Below are positions 21,041 to 35,123 of a stretch of 35,255 nucleotides of DNA, one piece after another. Every line of letters starts with the position of its first letter. Within the stretch, counting starts at the first letter, position 1. A model generated the notes under the pieces. The model was not told the origin of the DNA and made no database searches. It saw only the letters and a list, made by a program, of their open reading frames with translations. Position numbers and translations under genes: made by a program. Where the stretch lies: assembly GCA_016928955.1 (NCBI GenBank), contig JAFGJV010000038.1, forward strand, positions 1-35,255, given 5' to 3'. This DNA is from Spirochaetales bacterium (GTDB lineage: Bacteria > Spirochaetota > Spirochaetia > Treponematales > UBA12059).

Positions 21041-21691
21041 TTAGGGCAGGAGCGACAGGACGGCAAAAAAGTGCAGGATAGTGCCCGCGCCCACGAACAG
21101 GTGCCACACGGGGTGGCTCCAACTGGCCTTGCCGGCGTAAAATGCCACGCCGAGGGTGTACGCCAGCCCGCCGCCCATCAGGAACCAGAGGGTATCCGCG
21201 CCCACCGACGCCGCCAGCGGTTTCCAGGCAAACACCACTATCCAGCCCATGGCCACATAGGCCACGGAGGTGAGAATCTTGGTCTGGCGGGTACGGAAGG
21301 GCTCCAGGGCTATCCCCAACAGGGCCGCTCCCCACACGATACCGAATATCCACCAGCCAACGCCCGGCCTCAGGGCCACCAGCGCAAAGGGCGTGTATGT
21401 GCCTGCTATCAGGACGTAAATGGACGCATGGTCCAGAACCTTGAATACCCGCTTGGCTCGCGGCGAGCGTATGGCGTGATACAGCGTGGACATGAGATAC
21501 AGAAGCAAAGCCGACGCGGCGAACACGGAAAACGACACCACATGCCAGGCGTTGCCCCTGGACAAGCCGGCTGCCACGAGCACCACGGCGCCGACCGCCG
21601 CCAACACGGCCCCCAAGCCGTGGCTGATGGCGTTGGCCAGTTCGGCGCCCGCTGAATACGGCCGCGTTTGTTGAAGTGCAGTCTGAGACAT
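21041..21691 (-). CDS. Hemolysin III/PAQR family membrane protein
   Basis: E.ANAISHG, STLYH, LDHASIYVLIAGTYTP, H.VWHLFV motifs; about 7 TM. Confidence 0.92.
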   Translation of the reverse strand: MSQTALQQTRPYSAGAELANAISHGLGAVLAAVGAVVLVAAGLSRGNAWHVVSFSVFAASALLLYLMSTLYHAIRSPRAKRVFKVLDHASIYVLIAGTYTPFALVALRPGVGWWIFGIVWGAALLGIALEPFRTRQTKILTSVAYVAMGWIVVFAWKPLAASVGADTLWFLMGGGLAYTLGVAFYAGKASWSHPVWHLFVGAGTILHFFAVLSLLP

Positions 21692-21785
21692 GTACCTACC
21701 TTTCTGAGTCCTTTGACCCTGGCATATCGCTCTGGTTGCGTTTCCCGAGGTTTTTCGGTGTTGAACGGGCGCCAGGGCTCAGGGC

Positions 21786-21820
21786 AAAAAAAAACGGAAC
21801 GCCGGCCCTGGCGTTCCGTT
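21786..21820 (-). terminator. Strong rho-independent terminator
   Basis: 11-bp stem AACGGAACGCC/GGCGTTCCGTT, 6-nt loop, run of 9 T on the minus strand. Confidence 0.88.
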
Positions 21821-21907
21821 CTCTGGGCTTCCGCCCTTTTACCTTGTCCCCCACACGGCTGTTTTTACCTGATACATTTTTACTTGTTTTGGGGACCTTA
21901 CCAACCG
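21786..21907 (-). ncRNA. Candidate sigma54-dependent small RNA (~120 nt)
   Basis: Bounded by a -24/-12 promoter and a terminator; only a 12-codon ORF inside; four GUAA motifs and two stems. Confidence 0.6.
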
Positions 21908-21917
21908 CCATCTATAG

Positions 21918-21933
21918 AGCAGGAATCATGCCA
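21918..21933 (-). promoter_or_regulatory. Sigma54 (-24/-12) promoter
   Basis: TGGCATGATTCCTGCT matches TGGCAC-N5-TTGCW with correct GG-N10-GC spacing; immediately downstream of a sigma54 activator gene. Confidence 0.75.
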
Positions 21934-22136: not shown

Positions 22137-22172
22137 TTGTAGCAAAAACGACAACTGTGCAAAATCGCACAG
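22137..22172. promoter_or_regulatory. Tandem enhancer-like sites (2 x TGT-N10-ACA)
   Basis: TTGT-AGCAAAAACG-ACAA (22137-22154) abutting CTGT-GCAAAATCGC-ACAG (22155-22172). Confidence 0.55.
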
Positions 22173-22181
22173 GGCACCCAG

Positions 22182-23582
22182 CTAGTCGTCTTCATTACTC
22201 CGTACGCTGCGGTTCAAGGCCGAGCGCGATATGCCAAGGAGGCCAGCGGCCACGCCCTGGTTGTCCCCGCTTCTGGCCAGAGCCTCCCGTATCAGCTCCG
22301 CCCTGGCCTCCCTGAGCGTCGGGAGGACGGCCAGCCGGGAGAACAGGCCATCAGCGTCGCTCTTGGCCGGCACGTGAGCCTTGCCCCCGCGGAATACGCG
22401 GGCCTTGAACGAATCCAGGGCCAGCACGCGCGAGTCCGAGCGGGCAACGGCGTCATGGACCATGGATTCCAGCTCGCGGACGTTGCCCGGAAAATCATAG
22501 GTCCGCAGCAAATCGTACAACTCGGGCGGTATGATGGGTTTTTTCTTGCCGAATCTCCCGGCCGCCGCCTCGGCAAAGCGCTCGACCAGGAGCGGGAGGT
22601 CGTCGCGACGCTCCCTGAGGGGCGGCAGGCGTATCCGGTGGGTTTCTAGCCGGTAGTACAGGTCCTGGCGAAACTGCCCTGCGGCCGCCGCAGCCTCCAA
22701 GTCCCGATGCGTGGCTGTCACCACCAGGGCATCGGATGTCTTCATGGCGTCCGAGCCCAGGGGGTAGTAGCGTTTCTGCTCGATCAGGCGGAGCAACTTG
22801 ACCTGGCTCTGGGCTGAAAGGTCGCCGATTTCGTCCAGGAACAGGGTGCCGCCCGCCGCCCGCTCTATAAGGCCCGGACGGTCGGTATCCGCGCCCGTGA
22901 ACGCTCCCCGGCGGTGGCCAAACAGAGTATCGCTGAACATGGTGTCGTCAAGTCCCGCCACGTTCACCGCCACCAGCTCGCCCGAGCGCCCGGACGCCGC
23001 GTGTATGGCGCTTGCTACCAGTTCCTTGCCCGTGCCGGATTCGCCCGATATGAGCACGGGCCGGTCGCTGGCGACAATGGCTTCTATGTACCGGAAGATG
23101 GACAGCATGCGGCCGTCCCGGGTGATGATGCGGTCAAAGCTAGGAGACGGGGGCTTGGCAGCCTCCAAAAAGCTTTGCCTGAGGGCGCGATTGTCCTCTT
23201 TAAGGCTGGCTATCAGGGCGGCGTGCTCGATACTGGCCAGAAGACGGGCGCTCTCAGCCGACTTGGGCACATAGTCAAAAGCTCCTGCCTTCATGCAACG
23301 GACCACGGCGTCCAGATCGTCCACGGCCGTGCCCACGATGACCGGCACGTTCGGATAGTCCTCCCGCATGCGCTCGAGCACCTGATACCCGTCCATGCCG
23401 GGCATGAGCAGGTCCACGACCATGGCCACCGCGGGCTTCTCGTCCAGGGCGGCAAAGGCGTCCTCGGCGCGTTCGCAGAGGGCCACGTCCGTCCAGCCCT
23501 CGAAACGCAGCACGCGCCCCATCCTGGCAAGCACGTCCACGTCGTCGTCAAGCACCAGGATACGCCCGGACTTGTCTATCAT
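22182..23582 (-). CDS. NtrC-family sigma54-dependent response regulator (REC-AAA+-HTH)
   Basis: REC (LDDD, VDLLMPG), Walker A GESGTGKE, intact GAFTGA, LFLDEIGD, FPGNVREL, Fis-type HTH; ATGA overlap with the kinase. Confidence 0.95.
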   Translation of the reverse strand: MIDKSGRILVLDDDVDVLARMGRVLRFEGWTDVALCERAEDAFAALDEKPAVAMVVDLLMPGMDGYQVLERMREDYPNVPVIVGTAVDDLDAVVRCMKAGAFDYVPKSAESARLLASIEHAALIASLKEDNRALRQSFLEAAKPPSPSFDRIITRDGRMLSIFRYIEAIVASDRPVLISGESGTGKELVASAIHAASGRSGELVAVNVAGLDDTMFSDTLFGHRRGAFTGADTDRPGLIERAAGGTLFLDEIGDLSAQSQVKLLRLIEQKRYYPLGSDAMKTSDALVVTATHRDLEAAAAAGQFRQDLYYRLETHRIRLPPLRERRDDLPLLVERFAEAAAGRFGKKKPIIPPELYDLLRTYDFPGNVRELESMVHDAVARSDSRVLALDSFKARVFRGGKAHVPAKSDADGLFSRLAVLPTLREARAELIREALARSGDNQGVAAGLLGISRSALNRSVRSNEDD

Positions 23583-26500
23583 GTAGCCCCTTCCTTGTCT
23601 CTCAGCGCGGGAAGGCGGATGATCGCCTCCGTTCCCCTACCGAGGGTGGAGTGCAATTCTATGGCCCCGCCCAGCTCGCGCACAATGCCCGCGGATACCG
23701 GCATGCCCAGACCGGTGCCCCCCCGCTCGCGGCGGGTGGTAAAAAAGGGGTCGAACACGGAACTCAGCACGTCGGGGCTCATGCCCGCTCCCTCGTCGCG
23801 CACGCGAACGCACACCCAGGACGGAGAGTCGCCTCCGCCTTCCGCGTACGTGGACACCTCTATGCCCTTGTCGGGGTCCGGCAGGGCCTGCAGGGCGTTT
23901 TCCATGACGTTGACCACAACCTGCGTGAGCTTGAGCCTGTCCGCGCGCACGGGCGGAAGGCCGGAAGCTTGGTTGAACACGGCCCTGCGCGTGCACACCG
24001 ATATCGTGTGCCTGAGGAGGCGGGACGCGTACCCCACCACCTGGTTGACGTCCACCGCCTCGGCCTGGCCGGCGCTTGAGCCGCGGGCGTAGTCCTTGAG
24101 GTCGGACACTATCCTGCGTATGTGCTGGGCGCCCATGTACAGGTCGTTGAGCATCTCCGGAACCTCGGCCGCCAGATCCTCGGCGGAAAAGCCCTGGACG
24201 GCGAATTCTCGCTCGCGCCCGAGCCTGGTGACTTCCGGGGCAAGGGCCGCCCATATCTCCCTCAGCATGGGCACGTTCCTGAGCACGGCGTTGTTGGGGG
24301 TGTTGATCTCATGGGCCACGCCCGCCGTCAGCCAGCCGAGCGTCTTGAACTTGTCCACCTCGGCCATGCGGGCACGCTGTTCCCGGTCCCTGGCCACGCC
24401 CTTGGCCAGGTCCACCTGGGTACGCACTCGGGCCGACAGCTCGGAACCGCCGACAGGACGGACAACAAAATCCCGGGCTCCCGCGCCAAAGGCCTTGCCC
24501 AGATCTTCCTTGCGGGCGGAATCCAATATAAGGATGACAGGCGGGGCGTCGTGCTCCTTGGACACGCGTATCAGCGTGCAGAGCTCAAAGCCGCTGATCT
24601 CGGGCATGTCCGCGTCCACCACGGCCGCCTGGTATTCGCTGCCGGTGGACACCGCGTTCAGGGCATCCAGGGCCGATACCCGGGCGTCCACGGACCAGCC
24701 GTCCTCCTCCAGGCGCCGCTTGAGGGCAAAAAGGCTCAGGGGGTCGTCGTCCACGGCCAGGATCATGCCGCCCGGCCTTGCCTTGGCCGCAAGGTCCACG
24801 CTCAGGGCCTCCGGGCTCCCGTACTCCCTGTGTGCGTCCGCCGCGTCGCCATACTGCCGCCAGCTCATGGAGCGGGGGAACACAAAGGAATAGCGATTGC
24901 GGCCGCCGTCCCTGGAGTAGGAAAAGCTTCCGCCCAGTTCCCGTGCCAGGCGCGAGCACACCACCAGGTCCACCGCGCCAGCTTCCTCGGCCAGGAGCCT
25001 GGCCGGACCGCCGGAGTCGTCGCCCCGATACTCGGACGGCAACCCCTCCACTTCGGGACCGGTGTCCGCCTGCTCCACGCCGTCGTCGCTCAGCTCAAAC
25101 CTGACCAGGTGGGAATCCGCGGACGCTTCCACCCGGTACTCTCCCAGGCCCCGGGTTTTCATGACGCGGCACAGCACCATATAGGCAAGCTGCTGTATGC
25201 CCTTGAAGTCGTTGCGCAGCTCGATGAGGGGCACTTCAAAGCGCTCGCGAATGTCGCGGCCGGCGCGCAGGTAGGCGGTAAGGTTGACGGCGGCCCTGAG
25301 CACGGGCGCCAGGTTGAAGGTTTCGGCCTGGGGCCGTAGGACGCCGGCGCGCAGGCGGAGATACACCAGGGTGTTGGCGACCAGGGTGGCCACGCCGATC
25401 AGCTGGGCCCGCGCCAGGGCCAGTACCGACCCGGACGCGTGGTCGGCCGGCTTGATTTCCTCGACCAGGGCCAGGGCAGTGTCCAGGGGTTCGGCCAGGG
25501 CCCGAGCCGTGCCCAGTATGTAGGTGTCCCTGTCGGCGGTCACGCGCTCCAGGCGCTTGAAGGCCCGGGCGTAATCCTTGTCGGCGTTGAGCCTGGTCTG
25601 GATGGCCAGAGTGCCCAGGGCAAAGCTCATGAGCAGGGCGTGGAGAAACAGGGCTATGGGCAGCAGATGAAAGAACACGTCCAGTTCCGACAAACGGGGT
25701 GCGGCCGCCGCGAGGAACGCGCCCGCCAGGCCCGACGCGGGCAGGAGCCACAACGCGTTCTTGGACGAGCGCAGCCACCGGTCGGTCCTGAAAGCCGCCA
25801 CGCCCCGGACGCCCTCCTGCACGAGCTGGACCAGGAGTATCCCCATCATCGCGAGGTGGGGAACGGTTGACGGCAGAAGCGCGGACAGAAGGAGAATAGC
25901 CGCGTAGGCGGCCGGGCATACGATCCCCGGCCTCCATGCCCGGGCCTTCCCCTCGCCGTAACGCTGTCTGCCAACGGCCAAAAGCGACAAACCCTGGGCG
26001 CAGAAGAGCAGGTCAAGCGCCAGCCTTCCGCCCGTGGGGCCAAGGGCCAAACCCGCGGTGCCCGCTCCCCTCAGGCTCAGCATCACGAGGAGCAGGGACG
26101 CCGCCGCGAACACGAGATATCCGGGCATATTCACGGATCGACCCACCACGATGACCATGGCGGCCAGGTACAGTATCGCCATGGCGCCCACCACGATGCC
26201 TGCCACCCGGGTAAACAATATGAGCCTGCCCGTCAGGGCGCCCAGCCTCCACAGCCTGAGATCCCAGAAGAAACGGCCATGCCCCTCCATGCGCACGTAC
26301 ACGGTCCAGCGCGTGCTGGAGGTCAGGGACAGGGACAGGGCGGACACGTTGGACAGACCCGTGTCCAACACGCGGTCGTCCAGGTCAACGCCCCTCCACA
26401 CGTGGCGGGTGCCGTCTTCTGCCACGGCGACGAGAAGGCTTGGCCGTGCGTCCGAGAGGTAGGACGTAAGCACCCAGTCGTCATAGCCGGACAGGTTCCT

Positions 26501-26842
26501 GACCGTCAGGGCCACCCAGCGCGACCCCGAGCCGTAGCGGCCGGCCTGGTCGGGATCAAAGCTTCTGAACACCAGGGCGTCGGGTATAAACCCAAGACCG
26601 GCGGGATCCAGCTTGGCTCCGGCCGAGTCGTACACCAGCATGTCGCCGGAAATGCTCATGGCCTGGGCGCCTTCCCAGAGCACCAGGGTGGGGAGGCTGG
26701 GCCTGGGCTCTGACCCGAGCGGGGTTTCCGCGCCCCCCTGGCCGGGCCGAGCGTCCGTGGGCGACGCCCAAAGCGGGGCGACCAGGGCGGCAAGCAAGCC
26801 CAGGGCGTACATCCGGCGCGCGGCCGCTGGTTTTCCGCTCAT
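23579..26842 (-). CDS. Hybrid sensor histidine kinase (extracytoplasmic domain + multi-TM + degenerate kinase-like module + REC + HisKA/HATPase)
   Basis: H-box GVAHEINTP, N-box NVMENA, DEGAGM, FDPFFTT, GTGLG; REC AVDDD...VDADMP; ATG 26842 overlaps the PHP stop. Confidence 0.9.
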   Translation of the reverse strand: MSGKPAAARRMYALGLLAALVAPLWASPTDARPGQGGAETPLGSEPRPSLPTLVLWEGAQAMSISGDMLVYDSAGAKLDPAGLGFIPDALVFRSFDPDQAGRYGSGSRWVALTVRNLSGYDDWVLTSYLSDARPSLLVAVAEDGTRHVWRGVDLDDRVLDTGLSNVSALSLSLTSSTRWTVYVRMEGHGRFFWDLRLWRLGALTGRLILFTRVAGIVVGAMAILYLAAMVIVVGRSVNMPGYLVFAAASLLLVMLSLRGAGTAGLALGPTGGRLALDLLFCAQGLSLLAVGRQRYGEGKARAWRPGIVCPAAYAAILLLSALLPSTVPHLAMMGILLVQLVQEGVRGVAAFRTDRWLRSSKNALWLLPASGLAGAFLAAAAPRLSELDVFFHLLPIALFLHALLMSFALGTLAIQTRLNADKDYARAFKRLERVTADRDTYILGTARALAEPLDTALALVEEIKPADHASGSVLALARAQLIGVATLVANTLVYLRLRAGVLRPQAETFNLAPVLRAAVNLTAYLRAGRDIRERFEVPLIELRNDFKGIQQLAYMVLCRVMKTRGLGEYRVEASADSHLVRFELSDDGVEQADTGPEVEGLPSEYRGDDSGGPARLLAEEAGAVDLVVCSRLARELGGSFSYSRDGGRNRYSFVFPRSMSWRQYGDAADAHREYGSPEALSVDLAAKARPGGMILAVDDDPLSLFALKRRLEEDGWSVDARVSALDALNAVSTGSEYQAAVVDADMPEISGFELCTLIRVSKEHDAPPVILILDSARKEDLGKAFGAGARDFVVRPVGGSELSARVRTQVDLAKGVARDREQRARMAEVDKFKTLGWLTAGVAHEINTPNNAVLRNVPMLREIWAALAPEVTRLGREREFAVQGFSAEDLAAEVPEMLNDLYMGAQHIRRIVSDLKDYARGSSAGQAEAVDVNQVVGYASRLLRHTISVCTRRAVFNQASGLPPVRADRLKLTQVVVNVMENALQALPDPDKGIEVSTYAEGGGDSPSWVCVRVRDEGAGMSPDVLSSVFDPFFTTRRERGGTGLGMPVSAGIVRELGGAIELHSTLGRGTEAIIRLPALRDKEGAT

Positions 26843-27585
26843 GCCGGCCGCTCCATCCAATACGGCCGGGCCTTGCCATCGGCCAGGGCCCTGGCCAGGA
26901 CCGACAGGTCCACGGAGCCATCAGCCCGCTTCCAGTCCGGACCGGTGTCCAGCCTGAACGGCCGGCGTCCTATATGCTCCGGATAGTGGGCATCGGAACC
27001 CGATATGACCGGGTAGCCGCGGGCCGTTCCCTCCGGCAGGGGGCGAACGGCTTCAATGGCGGCGTACGGCCCGTCCGGGAGAAAACCCAGCTGGGTAAGG
27101 ACGCCGAACATGGGCCTGTCAACGTGGGCCGGTATGACCAGGGCCCCGTGGGCCAGCGCCTGGTCGCACAGCTCCCCATAGGCCAGGTCCAGGGCGCCGC
27201 CCAGCCAGCGCTCTGGCAGATCCACCACGTAGTCGTCGGCGTCGACCACGGCCTGGTCGCCCAGAATTTCCGGGTCATAGGGATAGTCCGGGGTATGGCC
27301 GCCAAGAAAGCGGCCAAAGTCCAGGGCCGCGTCGGGATCGGAGAACAGGCACAGGACATGCACCTCCTCCACGCTGCACGCCTCCATGCCGTACAGGGCG
27401 GAAAGGCCTTCCCTCCGGGCGCACAGCGCGAAGGCCGGCGCGTTGAGCGCGGCGTTGTGGTCGGTCAGGGCGACGATGTCGATACCCTGGCCGGCGGCCG
27501 CTCGGGCCAGGAGCGACGGTGACATGTCCAGGCTGGCGCAGGGCGAGAGGCAGGAATGGTTATGCAGGTCGCAGACGACGCTCAC
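26839..27585 (-). CDS. PHP-domain metal-dependent phosphoesterase
   Basis: DLHNHSCLSPC, LTDHN, AHVDR, SDAH motifs; GTGA overlap with the DRTGG gene. Confidence 0.88.
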   Translation of the reverse strand: MSVVCDLHNHSCLSPCASLDMSPSLLARAAAGQGIDIVALTDHNAALNAPAFALCARREGLSALYGMEACSVEEVHVLCLFSDPDAALDFGRFLGGHTPDYPYDPEILGDQAVVDADDYVVDLPERWLGGALDLAYGELCDQALAHGALVIPAHVDRPMFGVLTQLGFLPDGPYAAIEAVRPLPEGTARGYPVISGSDAHYPEHIGRRPFRLDTGPDWKRADGSVDLSVLARALADGKARPYWMERPA

Positions 27586-27929
27586 CGTCCGCCCGCACCG
27601 CCGCCCATGGCCTGGTAGACGAGGCCCGTGGCGTGGAACTGGTCCAGGTCGGTGGCAAAAACGGCCAGCCCTTCGGCCCGGGCGGCGTCCAGCATGTCCT
27701 CTGGGGCCTTCCGGCCGCCGCACAGCACGATGGCCGCCAGGTTGGCCAGGGACGCCACGGCCACCGTATTCTTGTGGGCCTGTATGGTCAGCAGCACCGA
27801 ACCGGCGCCCGCCTTGGCCATCACGTCGGACAGGAGGTCGGACGTGTAGCCGCCGTCCAGAGGACGGTCCTGGTAGTGGTCCTGGACGGGCTGAAACCCC
27901 AGCTCCGTGCCGAGCTCGCGTATGGTCAT
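27582..27929 (-). CDS. DRTGG-domain protein
   Basis: GYTSDLLSDVMA, LLTIQAHKNTVAVA pattern; AAGGAG SD. Confidence 0.8.
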   Translation of the reverse strand: MTIRELGTELGFQPVQDHYQDRPLDGGYTSDLLSDVMAKAGAGSVLLTIQAHKNTVAVASLANLAAIVLCGGRKAPEDMLDAARAEGLAVFATDLDQFHATGLVYQAMGGGAGGR

Positions 27930-27957
27930 GCGTTTTCTCCTTGCAGCTTAGGCCGTT

Positions 27958-28905
27958 CTACCCGGACGCGCCGGTCTCCGCCGCCCCGCCGCCCAGCAAT
28001 ATGGCGGCCTTCACCGTCGTGCCTGCGCCGGCTGACGATACTATGGAAAACTCGTCGGACGAGCGCCGGGCGTTGGGCAGGCCCAGGCCGGCGCCAAAGC
28101 CGAGCGAGCGTATCCACTCGTTGGCCGTGGAGTAGCCTTCCGTCAAGGCGGCGTCCACGTCCGGTATGCCGGGGCCCTTGTCCACGGCCAGAATGTCCAC
28201 CCGGCCGTCCGCCAGGCGGAACTCCATGACACCGCCGTGCGAGTGGATGACCTGGTTCAGCTCCAGCTCGTAGCTGGCCACGGCGGCGCGGCGCACGGTC
28301 TGGGGGTCGGCTCCCGCCGTCTTCAATGCCTTTTTGAGTTCTGCCGACGCCCGCCCCGCGTTCTCGAAATCGAAGCGCCGCGTGGTGAAACGCAGTATCC
28401 GGGGTCCTGCCGCCGGGTCTGCGGCCGGGCTTACCTTGGCGATCCCCTCCTCCAGACGCTCAACCTCGCGGTTCATCTCCACCAGCAGGGCCCGGATGAT
28501 GTCGGTGGCCGTCACTATGCCGACCAGGCTGCCGTCCCGGTTGAGCACGGGAAAGCGCCGGTAGTGGTAGCGGTTCAGGTAGGTGATGGCAAAGCTGAGC
28601 GGCATGTCGGCTTCCAGCACCGTAAGGCCCGTGGTCATCCTGGAGCCGGCCCGTTCGTCTATGTGGCCGCCGTCCAAGGCCTCTATGATGTCGCCTATGG
28701 TGACGATGCCCGCCAGGCGGCCGCCGTCCATGATGGGCACGCCCGTGATGCCGTGCTCGCGCATGAGCTCTTGGACGTGGCGCAGGCTGTCGAGAGGCGT
28801 CGCCCAACGCACGTCCGCGCTCATGACGTCGGCCACCTTCAGCCGGTAGATCAGGTCAAGGACGACCTTGGGTCCGCCGTCCGTGTCCAGGGGTATGGAA
28901 TCCAT
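27958..28905 (-). CDS. CBS-pair plus RsbT/RsbW-like HATPase (Ser/Thr kinase) fusion
   Basis: Two CBS repeats (VADVM, GVPI..G.LAGIVT.GDI; RFPV..DGSLVGIVT..DI) then YELELNQVIH, DKGPGIPD, EGYST, GFGAGLGLP. Confidence 0.85.
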   Translation of the reverse strand: MDSIPLDTDGGPKVVLDLIYRLKVADVMSADVRWATPLDSLRHVQELMREHGITGVPIMDGGRLAGIVTIGDIIEALDGGHIDERAGSRMTTGLTVLEADMPLSFAITYLNRYHYRRFPVLNRDGSLVGIVTATDIIRALLVEMNREVERLEEGIAKVSPAADPAAGPRILRFTTRRFDFENAGRASAELKKALKTAGADPQTVRRAAVASYELELNQVIHSHGGVMEFRLADGRVDILAVDKGPGIPDVDAALTEGYSTANEWIRSLGFGAGLGLPNARRSSDEFSIVSSAGAGTTVKAAILLGGGAAETGASG

Positions 28906-28913
28906 GGCCGGTC

Positions 28914-31127
28914 TCAGGCGTCCGCCGGACCCAGGCGGACGAGCAGGGCGTCTGCCCGGCTTCGTAGGCGTTCCATGTCCAGCCGGGCCTGCCGCACGAA
29001 CGGCGACGACTCGGGCGTGGACAGGACGGCCCGCATCTCGTCGTCGTCGCGGAACGTGGCCTTGCGGAAGGCGTTGGTATAGTCCTTTCGGCGCGTCAGG
29101 TATATCTGTTCCTCCACAAAGCGCGTGGTTTCCATGAAGTGGGCCGTCTCCCGGGCCAGGTCCCCGGCTTCCAGGCGCTCCGTCCTGCACAGGCCGGCCA
29201 GCGTGGCCCATGCGTGCTGGGCCTTGTCCAGGGGATACTCGGCCCATAGCCGCTCGTACTCGGCGTGCACGTTGTCCCAGCAGGCAAGCTGCCCGGACTT
29301 GACGCGGGATACCAGGGCCTCGACCTTTTCCCGGGGTACCAGCTGGCCGCCAAGGTTTTCCCAGTCCCGCACCCGGGGGCCTTCCAGCACCTCGGCCGCG
29401 TCCTGGAAGCCTAGGTCCGGCCGCTCCTCAAAGTAGTCCAGCAAGGTCCTCACGGCGTACCACCTGAGCATGTGCCGGTAGGCCTTGTACGCCCGGCGCG
29501 GCTTCAGGACGACCACGGCCCGCCGCGAGTTTTCCACACCGGGGGCGCGCACGTCCAGGGCGTCCACATCTTCCTTTGAGCCGGCCAGCAGGGCTCGGCC
29601 TCGCTCGCGCGCCTCGGCAGGCTCCGGGGTTGCGTCGCCCTTGAAGGCGTACCATGCCTCGCCGACCAGGCGCTCCAGCAGGGCCAGCGACCCGAACATC
29701 TCCTCGGCCGTGTCCGGGGCAAAGGGAGAGAACTCCACGCGCTGCACCTTGACCTTGCGTCGGTCGCGCGAGGCGAATTTGTCCTCGTTCCGGATCAGGG
29801 CGTACATGTTGTACATCCACCAGTAGGCCGGCATGAGCTCCAGCCGGTCCCTGGCCGGATCGTCGGCCACCAGGGCAAAGGGAAAGGGCACGTCCAGCTC
29901 AAAGCGGTAGTCGCCCTTGGCCAGGAGGCAGTAGCTGGCAAAGCGGGAACTGTGCTTGACCGAGGTGGACAGCCCCGGCCAGAAGCCGCGGCCCGCGTCT
30001 ATCTCGCCGTCGTTGGAGCGCGAGTTGTGGTTGGAGCCAACCGTGGCGCCGGCGGCCATGTTCGACTGGCCCCGGACCACGGCGGCCACCAGGAAACTGG
30101 TGTTGTGGTGTTGCTCGTGGGCCGGGAATACCAGGTTGTTCAGCATCTCGCAGCACGACACGGTGGAATTGTCGCCCAGCACGGAATGGATGAGCCGGGC
30201 CCCGTACTTGAGCGCCGAGTTGGAGCCCATGACAAAGCGCACGGCCTTGCAGCCGTAGAATATCCGGCAGCCGTATCCCACGATCCCGTTGACCAGCTCC
30301 ACGCCCTCGCCTATCTGCGTGCGCTCGGCGTCGCTGGAGCGTATGGTCAGGTTCTTGAGCTTGTTGGCGCCCTTGATATAGGCGCAGGCGCCGACGCGGA
30401 CGTCTTTGATGATGCGGTTGCTCTTGATCACGCTGTGCGGTCCAATGACGCCGTATTCCCCGCGGCGCGTTTCGAAGCAGGCCTGGGTCATGCCGCGGAA
30501 GCGGTCCATGAGGGCGCCGTCTTCCCGCCGCTTGGCCCACAGCCAGGCGTCCGCGCATATCATGGACTCGAACGGCAGGACCGAGCGGCCGCCGGCCTCG
30601 TTCATCAGGTCCAGCCACACGCGCAGGTCCTCGGTCTCGCCGTCCTTGATGATGCCGTTGCCCCACTTGGCGTGGTTGGTCACGTGGATCTCGTCGTTGT
30701 TGAGGAGGATGCACCCGTCGCCTATCAGGTAGTGGGCTATGTACGCGCATGAGTGGATGGCGCAGTCGTCGCCCACGTCGCAGGACACCAGGCGGGACGA
30801 GGTGATGCCAACCGGTACCACCATGTCGTGGTGCTCGAGCGCGACGCTCGACACGCGGCCGATGCGCACCAGGCCCGCGAACTCGCTGTTCCTCACCAGG
30901 CCGGCGTCAAACCGGTCGCTGACCAGCACCGTGGACCAGTCCGCGGCGCGGTTGCCGTTGCGCTCGAGGGCGGCTATCTCGTCCGCGCCGAGCCTGCGGT
31001 ACTCCGAGTCAGCCTTGCCGGACTCGAGCCTGCGCAGATAGAACTCGTCCTGGCCGTCGGGCAGGAAAGCCGGGGGCACAAAGCCGTAGCCCAGATCAGC
31101 TCTCCCATGGACTTGTATGTCGTTCAT
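28914..31127 (-). CDS. DUF4954-like protein with left-handed beta-helix-like repeats
   Basis: 737 aa; YRRL..EI..LE.NGN start; hexapeptide-like repeats (IGEGVEL.NG.VG, LGDNSTV); family assigned from memory. Confidence 0.75.
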   Translation of the reverse strand: MNDIQVHGRADLGYGFVPPAFLPDGQDEFYLRRLESGKADSEYRRLGADEIAALERNGNRAADWSTVLVSDRFDAGLVRNSEFAGLVRIGRVSSVALEHHDMVVPVGITSSRLVSCDVGDDCAIHSCAYIAHYLIGDGCILLNNDEIHVTNHAKWGNGIIKDGETEDLRVWLDLMNEAGGRSVLPFESMICADAWLWAKRREDGALMDRFRGMTQACFETRRGEYGVIGPHSVIKSNRIIKDVRVGACAYIKGANKLKNLTIRSSDAERTQIGEGVELVNGIVGYGCRIFYGCKAVRFVMGSNSALKYGARLIHSVLGDNSTVSCCEMLNNLVFPAHEQHHNTSFLVAAVVRGQSNMAAGATVGSNHNSRSNDGEIDAGRGFWPGLSTSVKHSSRFASYCLLAKGDYRFELDVPFPFALVADDPARDRLELMPAYWWMYNMYALIRNEDKFASRDRRKVKVQRVEFSPFAPDTAEEMFGSLALLERLVGEAWYAFKGDATPEPAEARERGRALLAGSKEDVDALDVRAPGVENSRRAVVVLKPRRAYKAYRHMLRWYAVRTLLDYFEERPDLGFQDAAEVLEGPRVRDWENLGGQLVPREKVEALVSRVKSGQLACWDNVHAEYERLWAEYPLDKAQHAWATLAGLCRTERLEAGDLARETAHFMETTRFVEEQIYLTRRKDYTNAFRKATFRDDDEMRAVLSTPESSPFVRQARLDMERLRSRADALLVRLGPADA

Positions 31128-35067: not shown

Positions 35068-35123
35068 GCTCCCGCCTTGTGTGCCAAAGCCTTGATGTCA
35101 AACATGCTGAGCCAATTTCAAAA

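Follow-up and report, generated by a model that had tools for sequence, protein, structure and literature searches.

A small non-coding RNA gene conserved in free-living spirochaetes lies directly behind the gene of its probable activator

The Source Locus

The window, i.e., the whole 35,255-nt stretch of DNA analyzed here, belongs to a genome of 2.87 Mb that is 99.5% complete, and carries on its minus strand a predicted small RNA unit situated between the gene of an NtrC-type activator and that of a membrane protein. Homologous copies are referred to as type I or type II, as described below. The features concerned are the following, with the basis of each assignment in parentheses:

23579–26860 (−): hybrid sensor kinase with a 7TMR-DISM-like extracellular/7TM N-terminus, receiver and HisKA/HATPase domains (Pfam, Atlas)
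22182–23582 (−): NtrC-type sigma54 activator, 466 aa, with receiver and AAA+ domains (Pfam)
22156–22171 (−): palindromic enhancer-like site TGTGCA-N4-TGCACA, predicted binding site of the activator (type I conservation)
21918–21933 (−): sigma54 −24/−12 promoter TGGCATGATTCCTGCT (sequence; consensus across 57 distinct copies)
21786–21907 (−): predicted small RNA of about 120 nt (sequence, folding, homologous loci)
21846–21896 (−): P1 helix GUCCCC/GGGGAC (21896-21891/21851-21846), whose A-rich loop holds two of the motif copies (type I comparison)
21836–21885 (−): three good motif copies, AAGUAAAAA at 21885-21877, AGGUAAAAA at 21870-21862 and AGGUAAAAG at 21844-21836 (family consensus)
21836-21825 (−): GGGC-GGAA-GCCC hairpin (sequence)
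21786–21820 (−): intrinsic terminator, 11-bp stem 21820-21810/21803-21793 and 9-T run 21794-21786 (sequence)
21712–21739 (−): separate promoter element GCAACC-N16-GTCNA for hlyIII (conservation)
21041–21691 (−): HlyIII/TrhA (PAQR family) membrane protein gene, a neighbour outside the RNA unit (Pfam HlyIII; NCBIfam TrhA above cut-off)

The stop of the kinase gene overlaps the start of the activator gene. In Pfam, the kinase displays REC, HisKA and HATPase domains together with a weak 7TMR-DISM_7TM match (E 0.013), and its top Atlas match corresponds to 7TMR-DISMED2/7TM clusters (0.95). The activator scores under every named equivalog cut-off, its closest named homologues being found in spirochaete metagenome assemblies at 65–67% identity. 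A homologous kinase is situated upstream at L040, L041, and L066, and none lies beside the activator of type II copies, so that the fixed core consists of the activator and the RNA; in this sense, the kinase/activator/small RNA layout proposed in a preliminary description of this DNA holds for its last two members, but not for the neighbouring kinase as a constant part. DUF4954, CBS/HATPase, 115-aa and PHP genes are lined up head to tail and lead on to the kinase and activator genes (window 26839–31127, −); the 115-aa gene upstream of the kinase is presumably DRTGG-like, and a PHP gene is also present upstream at L040 and L066.

Promoter and Enhancer-Like Site

The sigma54 promoter begins 248 nt past the activator stop, and its sequence places the predicted +1 of the RNA at about 21908–21906. 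The consensus of the 57 distinct copies is TGGCAYG-N4-TTGCW, and the sigma70-like site overlapping the promoter here is not evident in the homologues. The source genome encodes rpoN, on whose presence the preliminary description had made its proposal depend, as well as eight full sigma54-activator domains. A genome-wide chance check found at least two GTAA within the next 120 nt at 1 of 36 consensus sigma54 sites, i.e., here alone; furthermore, the RNA unit is the sole cluster of three within 100 nt among the 176 RDGTAAAA sites of the genome.

At 14/14 type I loci examined, the palindrome TGTGCA-N4-TGCACA lies past the activator stop, and a relaxed version of the pattern has 2 matches in the whole source genome. 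Since this enhancer-like site is nearly unique in the genome, the activator may act mainly through the RNA, which it probably switches on. In type II, TGCA-N3-TGCA-like sites are found between −91 and −120 at 15 of 16 loci. A second element, TGT-N10-ACA, stands beside the palindrome (window 22153-22138, −); its pattern was matched here only, and it is altered in a strain variant. Other strong intergenic sigma54 promoters of the genome are situated on contigs C46 (35880), C35 (6184), C14 (12739), C31 (7620), C47 (74045), and C58 (19676). Two of them precede genes with sigma factor-like N-termini, as is also the case at L129, an arrangement that might recall, by analogy, an RpoN-to-RpoS-like cascade.

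RNA Structure and Terminator

The sigma54 box, the GTAA positions, the GUCCCC/GGGGAC helix, the small hairpin and the 11-bp-stem terminator with 9 U all lie where the preliminary description had put them. Its folded structure, including the two GUAA copies in the A-rich loop that can be read directly in the sequence, is recovered by RNAfold (z −3.1 and −3.55 in two runs). Two details had to be amended: the fourth of the four GUAA copies (minus-strand start positions 21901, 21883, 21868, and 21842) reads AGGUAAAAG and not AGGUAAAG, and the GGAA loop of the small hairpin, although present here, is not conserved among homologues.

P1 was found in 17 of 27 type I copies, with compensatory replacement of U-A by C-G in 4 and of G-C by A-U in 2, its arms having been positioned by our own script and register. 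RNAalifold did not recover P1 from automatic alignments, because the arms are out of register in them. In the terminator stem, both sides have changed at 7 of the 11 pairs (10 copies) in a compensatory manner; a consensus terminator scanner did not list the terminator of the source locus, probably because its stem runs into the T run.

The unit is a non-coding RNA gene. A comparison of six type I copies revealed no open frame common to all of them, and array gaps of 9, 11, 13, and 14 nt, which occur beside those of 12 nt, argue against a reading frame. Rfam gave no match above the gathering score either in the window, where four weak miRNA/snoRNA chance matches appeared, or in 10 homologous loci. 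The family is real and apparently unpublished: searches of the open-licence full text of PMC and bioRxiv found no description of it, and the preliminary description did not recognise such a circuit as described.

Relationship With hlyIII

In 19 type I loci, hlyIII lies downstream of the unit on the same strand, which would suit the alternative offered by the preliminary description, namely an attenuated hlyIII leader. This alternative is refuted, and we grant it next to no probability, by the following. All 19 distinct type I loci with hlyIII downstream carry, between terminator and hlyIII, the element GCAACC-N16-GTCNA, which we take to be an ECF-type promoter, whereas it is missing from the six type I loci devoid of hlyIII (0/6). 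The RNA unit thus persists where hlyIII is lacking, and where hlyIII is present the gene has a promoter-like element of its own past the terminator. Moreover, downstream genes vary, the next gene being convergent at L016/L040 and L017/L066, and type II copies preceding cheY-like, ABC permease or convergent genes. Only 3 genes of the source genome have GCAACC-N16-GTCNA within 150 nt upstream, and the 16-nt spacer is not enriched genome-wide.

Distribution Among Spirochaetes

Overall, 59 distinct promoter-bearing copies were gathered, i.e., 57 deduplicated ones (26 type I and 31 type II) and two more; beyond these, there is a cut copy (L293) and a second copy without activator (L321). Promoter, motif and terminator are kept across the family, flanks and most of the internal sequence vary, and RNA length ranges from about 95 to 205 nt.

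Type I activators (at least 56% identity) occur in 16 of 40 related genomes. In all 11 related genomes with enough DNA downstream of the activator, and at L041, a sigma54 box lies 206–271 nt past the activator stop, with GTAA repeats and then a terminator behind it; where the contig is cut, the unit was found on another contig in 4 of 5 genomes, the fifth being 72% complete. A covariance search, of the kind advised in the preliminary description, was carried out with a model of the type I unit built without the promoter, which matched in 26 of 141 genomes of the order; ten new loci were obtained, with the sigma54 box at the expected place in eight, further upstream in one, and one cut. The promoter-terminator unit that the same description had anticipated at orthologous loci is therefore found, behind one activator clade.

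Type II copies follow more distant activators (about 41–50% identity) and are built more simply: the promoter comes first, then motifs repeated in tandem at a 12-nt period, then the terminator. The named carriers of the unit are all metagenome-assembled, and the labels of close type II matches read Alkalispirochaeta sp. and Spirochaeta sp. Among 80 of the 94 matches to a promoter-plus-motif pattern, 14 were labelled as spirochaete, 12 of them with the activator upstream; among 80 of the more than 122 matches to a promoter-free pattern, 14 came from spirochaetes, and the activator was present in 13 of these vs. 0/66 of the others. Among 81 relatives of one carrier, 22 possess a triple array (control, 0), in every case with promoter and activator (22/22).

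In a midpoint-rooted activator tree of 126 tips, the type I clade has a support of 1.0 and type II is weakly supported (0.505). Both together make up 39 of the 40 tips of one clade (support 0.75), the exception being L080, whose type II-clade activator is still upstream of a cheY-like gene and has neither promoter nor array, in an apparent loss of the RNA. The unit was found in 0 of 141 loci of other activators (74 + 67), and in none of the 11 non-self matches inspected in a phylum-wide search of 350 genomes, L131 being cut by the contig end. Four weak model matches from a Treponema-like family lack promoter and activator, with two further weak matches falling outside this check; three pattern matches within the family (L260, L268, and L277) were dropped as chance.

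L321 (genome G465, contig C532, about 1560–1640) is a second motif array with terminator that is not beside an activator, has no sigma54 site within 190 nt and follows the gene of a predicted exported protein. At two Bacteroidota loci, L170 and L191, GTAA occurs 9 and 7 times, respectively, after a sigma54-like site, with no activator nearby; these are probably simple repeats.

The Repeated Motif

The family consensus, derived from 109 sites on the sense strand, is A-D-G-U-A-A-R-A-A; the first copy of the source RNA, UGGUAAGG, departs from it, leaving three good copies. Unbiased counts were obtained from 12 loci picked by activator homology alone, with the seed excluded. GTAA appears 41 times vs. 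2 for TTAC within the unit (1403 nt), the corresponding figures for the flanks being 6/8 in 1800 nt upstream and 5/4 in 1800 nt downstream, and GGTAA was counted 26 times vs. 8.6 in shuffles (maximum 15), these loci being kin and hence not independent. A terminator-finder script misplaced the ends at L016, L162, and L194, of which the unbiased counts include L016 only.

The number of GTAA copies varies from 1 to 10 per RNA, the L062 RNA having eight copies, and the short motif is kept while the surrounding sequence varies; several type I copies have 0–1 perfect motifs (e.g., L291, 0; L113, 1). In the six type II loci found through the activator that have at least two copies, 15 of 20 gaps show the 12-nt spacing. 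The predicted unpaired probability is 0.73 for motifs vs. 0.48 elsewhere, partly as an effect of A-richness. Besides, GTTGG at the 5′ end is enriched among type I units (10 vs. 2.1); type II units lack it, and several type I copies have drifted away from it.

The repeats might instead be DNA sites for a transcription factor tuning the promoter or the downstream gene, or the transcript might be incidental. Tandem DNA sites of some response regulators resemble GTAAA repeats, and in four RNA-library runs, available as contigs only, depth is flat, at about 1–5, across the RNA unit and its flanks and is uninformative on expression; two of these contigs span the terminator, as DNA carry-over or read-through would produce. 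However, neither the 12–13 nt period nor the irregular type I spacing fits the helical repeat, the motif is restricted to the sense strand between promoter and terminator, compensatory changes preserve RNA pairing in both P1 and the terminator, and downstream genes differ among loci, all of which renders this explanation quite unlikely. The strain variant, from sludge runs, has 0 of its 10 differences in the 121-nt RNA on a 389-nt contig (P 0.024, post hoc), a weak, post hoc hint of selection.

Putative Decoy Function and Partner Searches

Comparison among loci demonstrates that the predicted promoter, enhancer-like site, terminator and motif are conserved and linked to one activator clade. 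A stand-alone non-coding unit with a variable number of kept, unpaired sense-strand motifs has the anatomy of protein-titrating RNAs, and we consider, with a probability of roughly two in three, that the RNA acts as a trans-acting decoy (protein sponge) for an RNA-binding protein. For type I, the signal sensed by the kinase would lead to phosphorylation of the NtrC-type activator, whose binding to TGTGCA-N4-TGCACA, about 200–240 bp upstream, would open the sigma54 promoter; the resulting short, self-terminating RNA would display several unpaired A-D-G-U-A-A-R-A-A sites, in the P1-closed loop in type I and in the 12-nt-period array in type II, and these could bind several molecules of the protein, drawing it off its usual RNA targets. 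Transcription of the RNA, its dependence on the activator, protein binding and the sponge effect are what we infer from this anatomy. The second, activator-less copy L321 in one genome is as in multi-sponge systems.

Concerning the partner, it is not Hfq, since no Hfq (PF17209) was found in 6/6 genomes (the source, 99.5% complete, and five with type II), even if a very divergent Hfq could escape such a search. It is also probably not CsrA. The site of CsrA is ANGGA, so ANGUA is one base off and a CsrA with changed specificity might be envisaged: the source genome encodes one CsrA, as in systems of the CsrB/RsmZ kind, and so do four of the five type II genomes tested; position −2 is A in 95 of the 109 motif sites; and the sensor, being 7TMR-DISM-like, is reminiscent of RetS/LadS, whose signals enter Csr/Rsm systems. 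Nonetheless, GGA is not enriched (17 vs. 16.3 expected, 0–3 per copy), the single csrA stands in a flagellar operon-type context, canonical CACGGAU sites are found in three flagellin leaders, and a second CsrA-like protein was not found, making such a partner highly improbable.

Searches for targets of the presumed decoyed protein, which would miss a few-target regulator or a shorter site, brought no target set to light. In the source genome, the motif near starts is no commoner than control words; a GTAA peak at −16 to −13 corresponds to the GTAAGGAG ribosome-binding site, and the G before TAAGGAG (16/38) equals the genome background. No avoidance of the motif in coding sequence was found, and a leader search across 42 family genomes gave no recurring target gene beyond close kin (32 matches listed vs. 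23 for the control). The idea of a sponge-type circuit put forward in the preliminary description is sustained in its conserved, sigma54-driven, self-terminating unit with repeated single-stranded motifs, but no partner or target was found in these searches. In three genomes of one genus (L495, L509, and L510), the motif occurs once or twice immediately ahead of the ribosome-binding site of a 496-aa response-regulator-like gene, a weak target lead. Genes for RRM proteins occur in 37 of 41 genomes, whether or not these have the RNA; the leaders of RRM genes (31 loci) do not carry the motif, nor do those of spoVG, which is present, and csrA in the source genome. The in-vitro motif given for RbpB, GUAGGAUA (bioRxiv 10.1101/2021.04.27.441718), has GUA in common with the RNA repeat, which serves as a lead only.

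Comparison With Known Small RNAs

Small RNAs transcribed from a sigma54 promoter next to the gene of their activator include GlmY, under GlrK/GlrR, and Pxr, encoded next to nla19. GlmY, whose decoy action concerns a single protein, RapZ, mimics a structured RNA, whereas tandem motifs are found here, a comparison made by description and by the absent Rfam match. CrcZ and CrcY carry AANAANAA motifs, none of which appeared on reading 21907–21821 of the source locus. The RNA resembles CrcZ in layout and CsrB in design, and is a member of neither group.

As in the case presented here, CrcZ/CrcY/CrcX of Pseudomonadaceae form separate units that directly follow the gene of a sigma54 activator of the NtrC type; the Crc RNA sequesters a protein regulator, with extra copies in some genomes (PMC8871633). 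The same source assigns SLC5-STAC-PAS domains to CbrA and reports CbrB sites as not palindromic (PMC8871633), in contrast with the 7TMR-DISM-like sensor with REC and HK domains and the palindromic enhancer-like site of the source locus. Further differences are the lack of Hfq in the six genomes searched, the ADGUAARAA motif, the length range and the absence of Rfam matches; the CbrA-CbrB-CrcZ comparison of the preliminary description thus survives as regards layout, though not for sensor type, Hfq or motif. CsrB/CsrC and RsmY/RsmZ also combine a short repeated motif in unpaired RNA with an intrinsic terminator, and CsrA sponges have the motif in common with target mRNAs, as stated in PMC12119571. 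Unlike them, the present RNA has GUAA instead of GGA, is under predicted sigma54 control, and no matching mRNA targets were found in the searches above. Further literature consulted is PMC9481697 and PMC11697453.

NrsZ of Pseudomonas aeruginosa, another RpoN-/NtrC-type-dependent small RNA with repeated modules, is processed into three similar modules whose loop motif, ACAGGCAG, is needed for rhlA activation (PMC4253122), in contrast with the A-rich, mostly linear motif found here. A repeated motif can thus act on mRNA, and pairing of the repeats, or of the type I 5′ GUUGG, with target RNAs, either as a base-pairing small RNA or as an RNA sponge, stays a rival, also favoured by the enrichment of 5′ GTTGG in type I. 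On the other hand, an A-rich 9-mer pairs weakly, near start codons the complement of the motif ranks 11/30 and the CCAACC complement 9/15 among permutations, and the 5′ GUUGG behaves inconsistently across the family, as indicated above; pairing is considered unlikely.

Significance and Other Genome Features

To our knowledge, spirochaetes have no recognised Hfq, and little is known of their post-transcriptional regulators. In Borrelia, few RNA-binding proteins have been characterised, as stated in PMC13285594. A conserved small RNA with a sharp, unfamiliar repeated motif and with promoter, enhancer-like site and activator all defined offers a direct route to its presumed binding protein, and could also report on a 7TMR-DISM signalling cassette, so far uncharacterised, of bacteria that are anaerobic and for the most part uncultured. 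More tentatively, and with the odds somewhat against it, the decoy could belong to a global protein-sponge circuit that would be the third of its kind, next to Csr/Rsm and Crc/Hfq, and in which a new RNA-binding regulator of free-living spirochaetes would recognise A-N-G-U-A-A; this regulator, possibly an oligomer with a 12-nt footprint, would be switched off by the sigma54-driven decoy, and the latter would have stayed with one activator clade while sensors and neighbours were swapped. If this were true, a post-transcriptional regulator of a class new to bacteria could readily be fished out with this RNA as bait.

Other repeats were observed in the source genome. The ends of contigs C26, C40, C44, and C54 carry arrays of ATAGTAAGGA-like units with a period of about 18 nt, which are probably part of a repeated element, and window positions 35109–35123 hold one of the 16 genome copies of the intergenic repeat GAGCCAATTTCAAAA.
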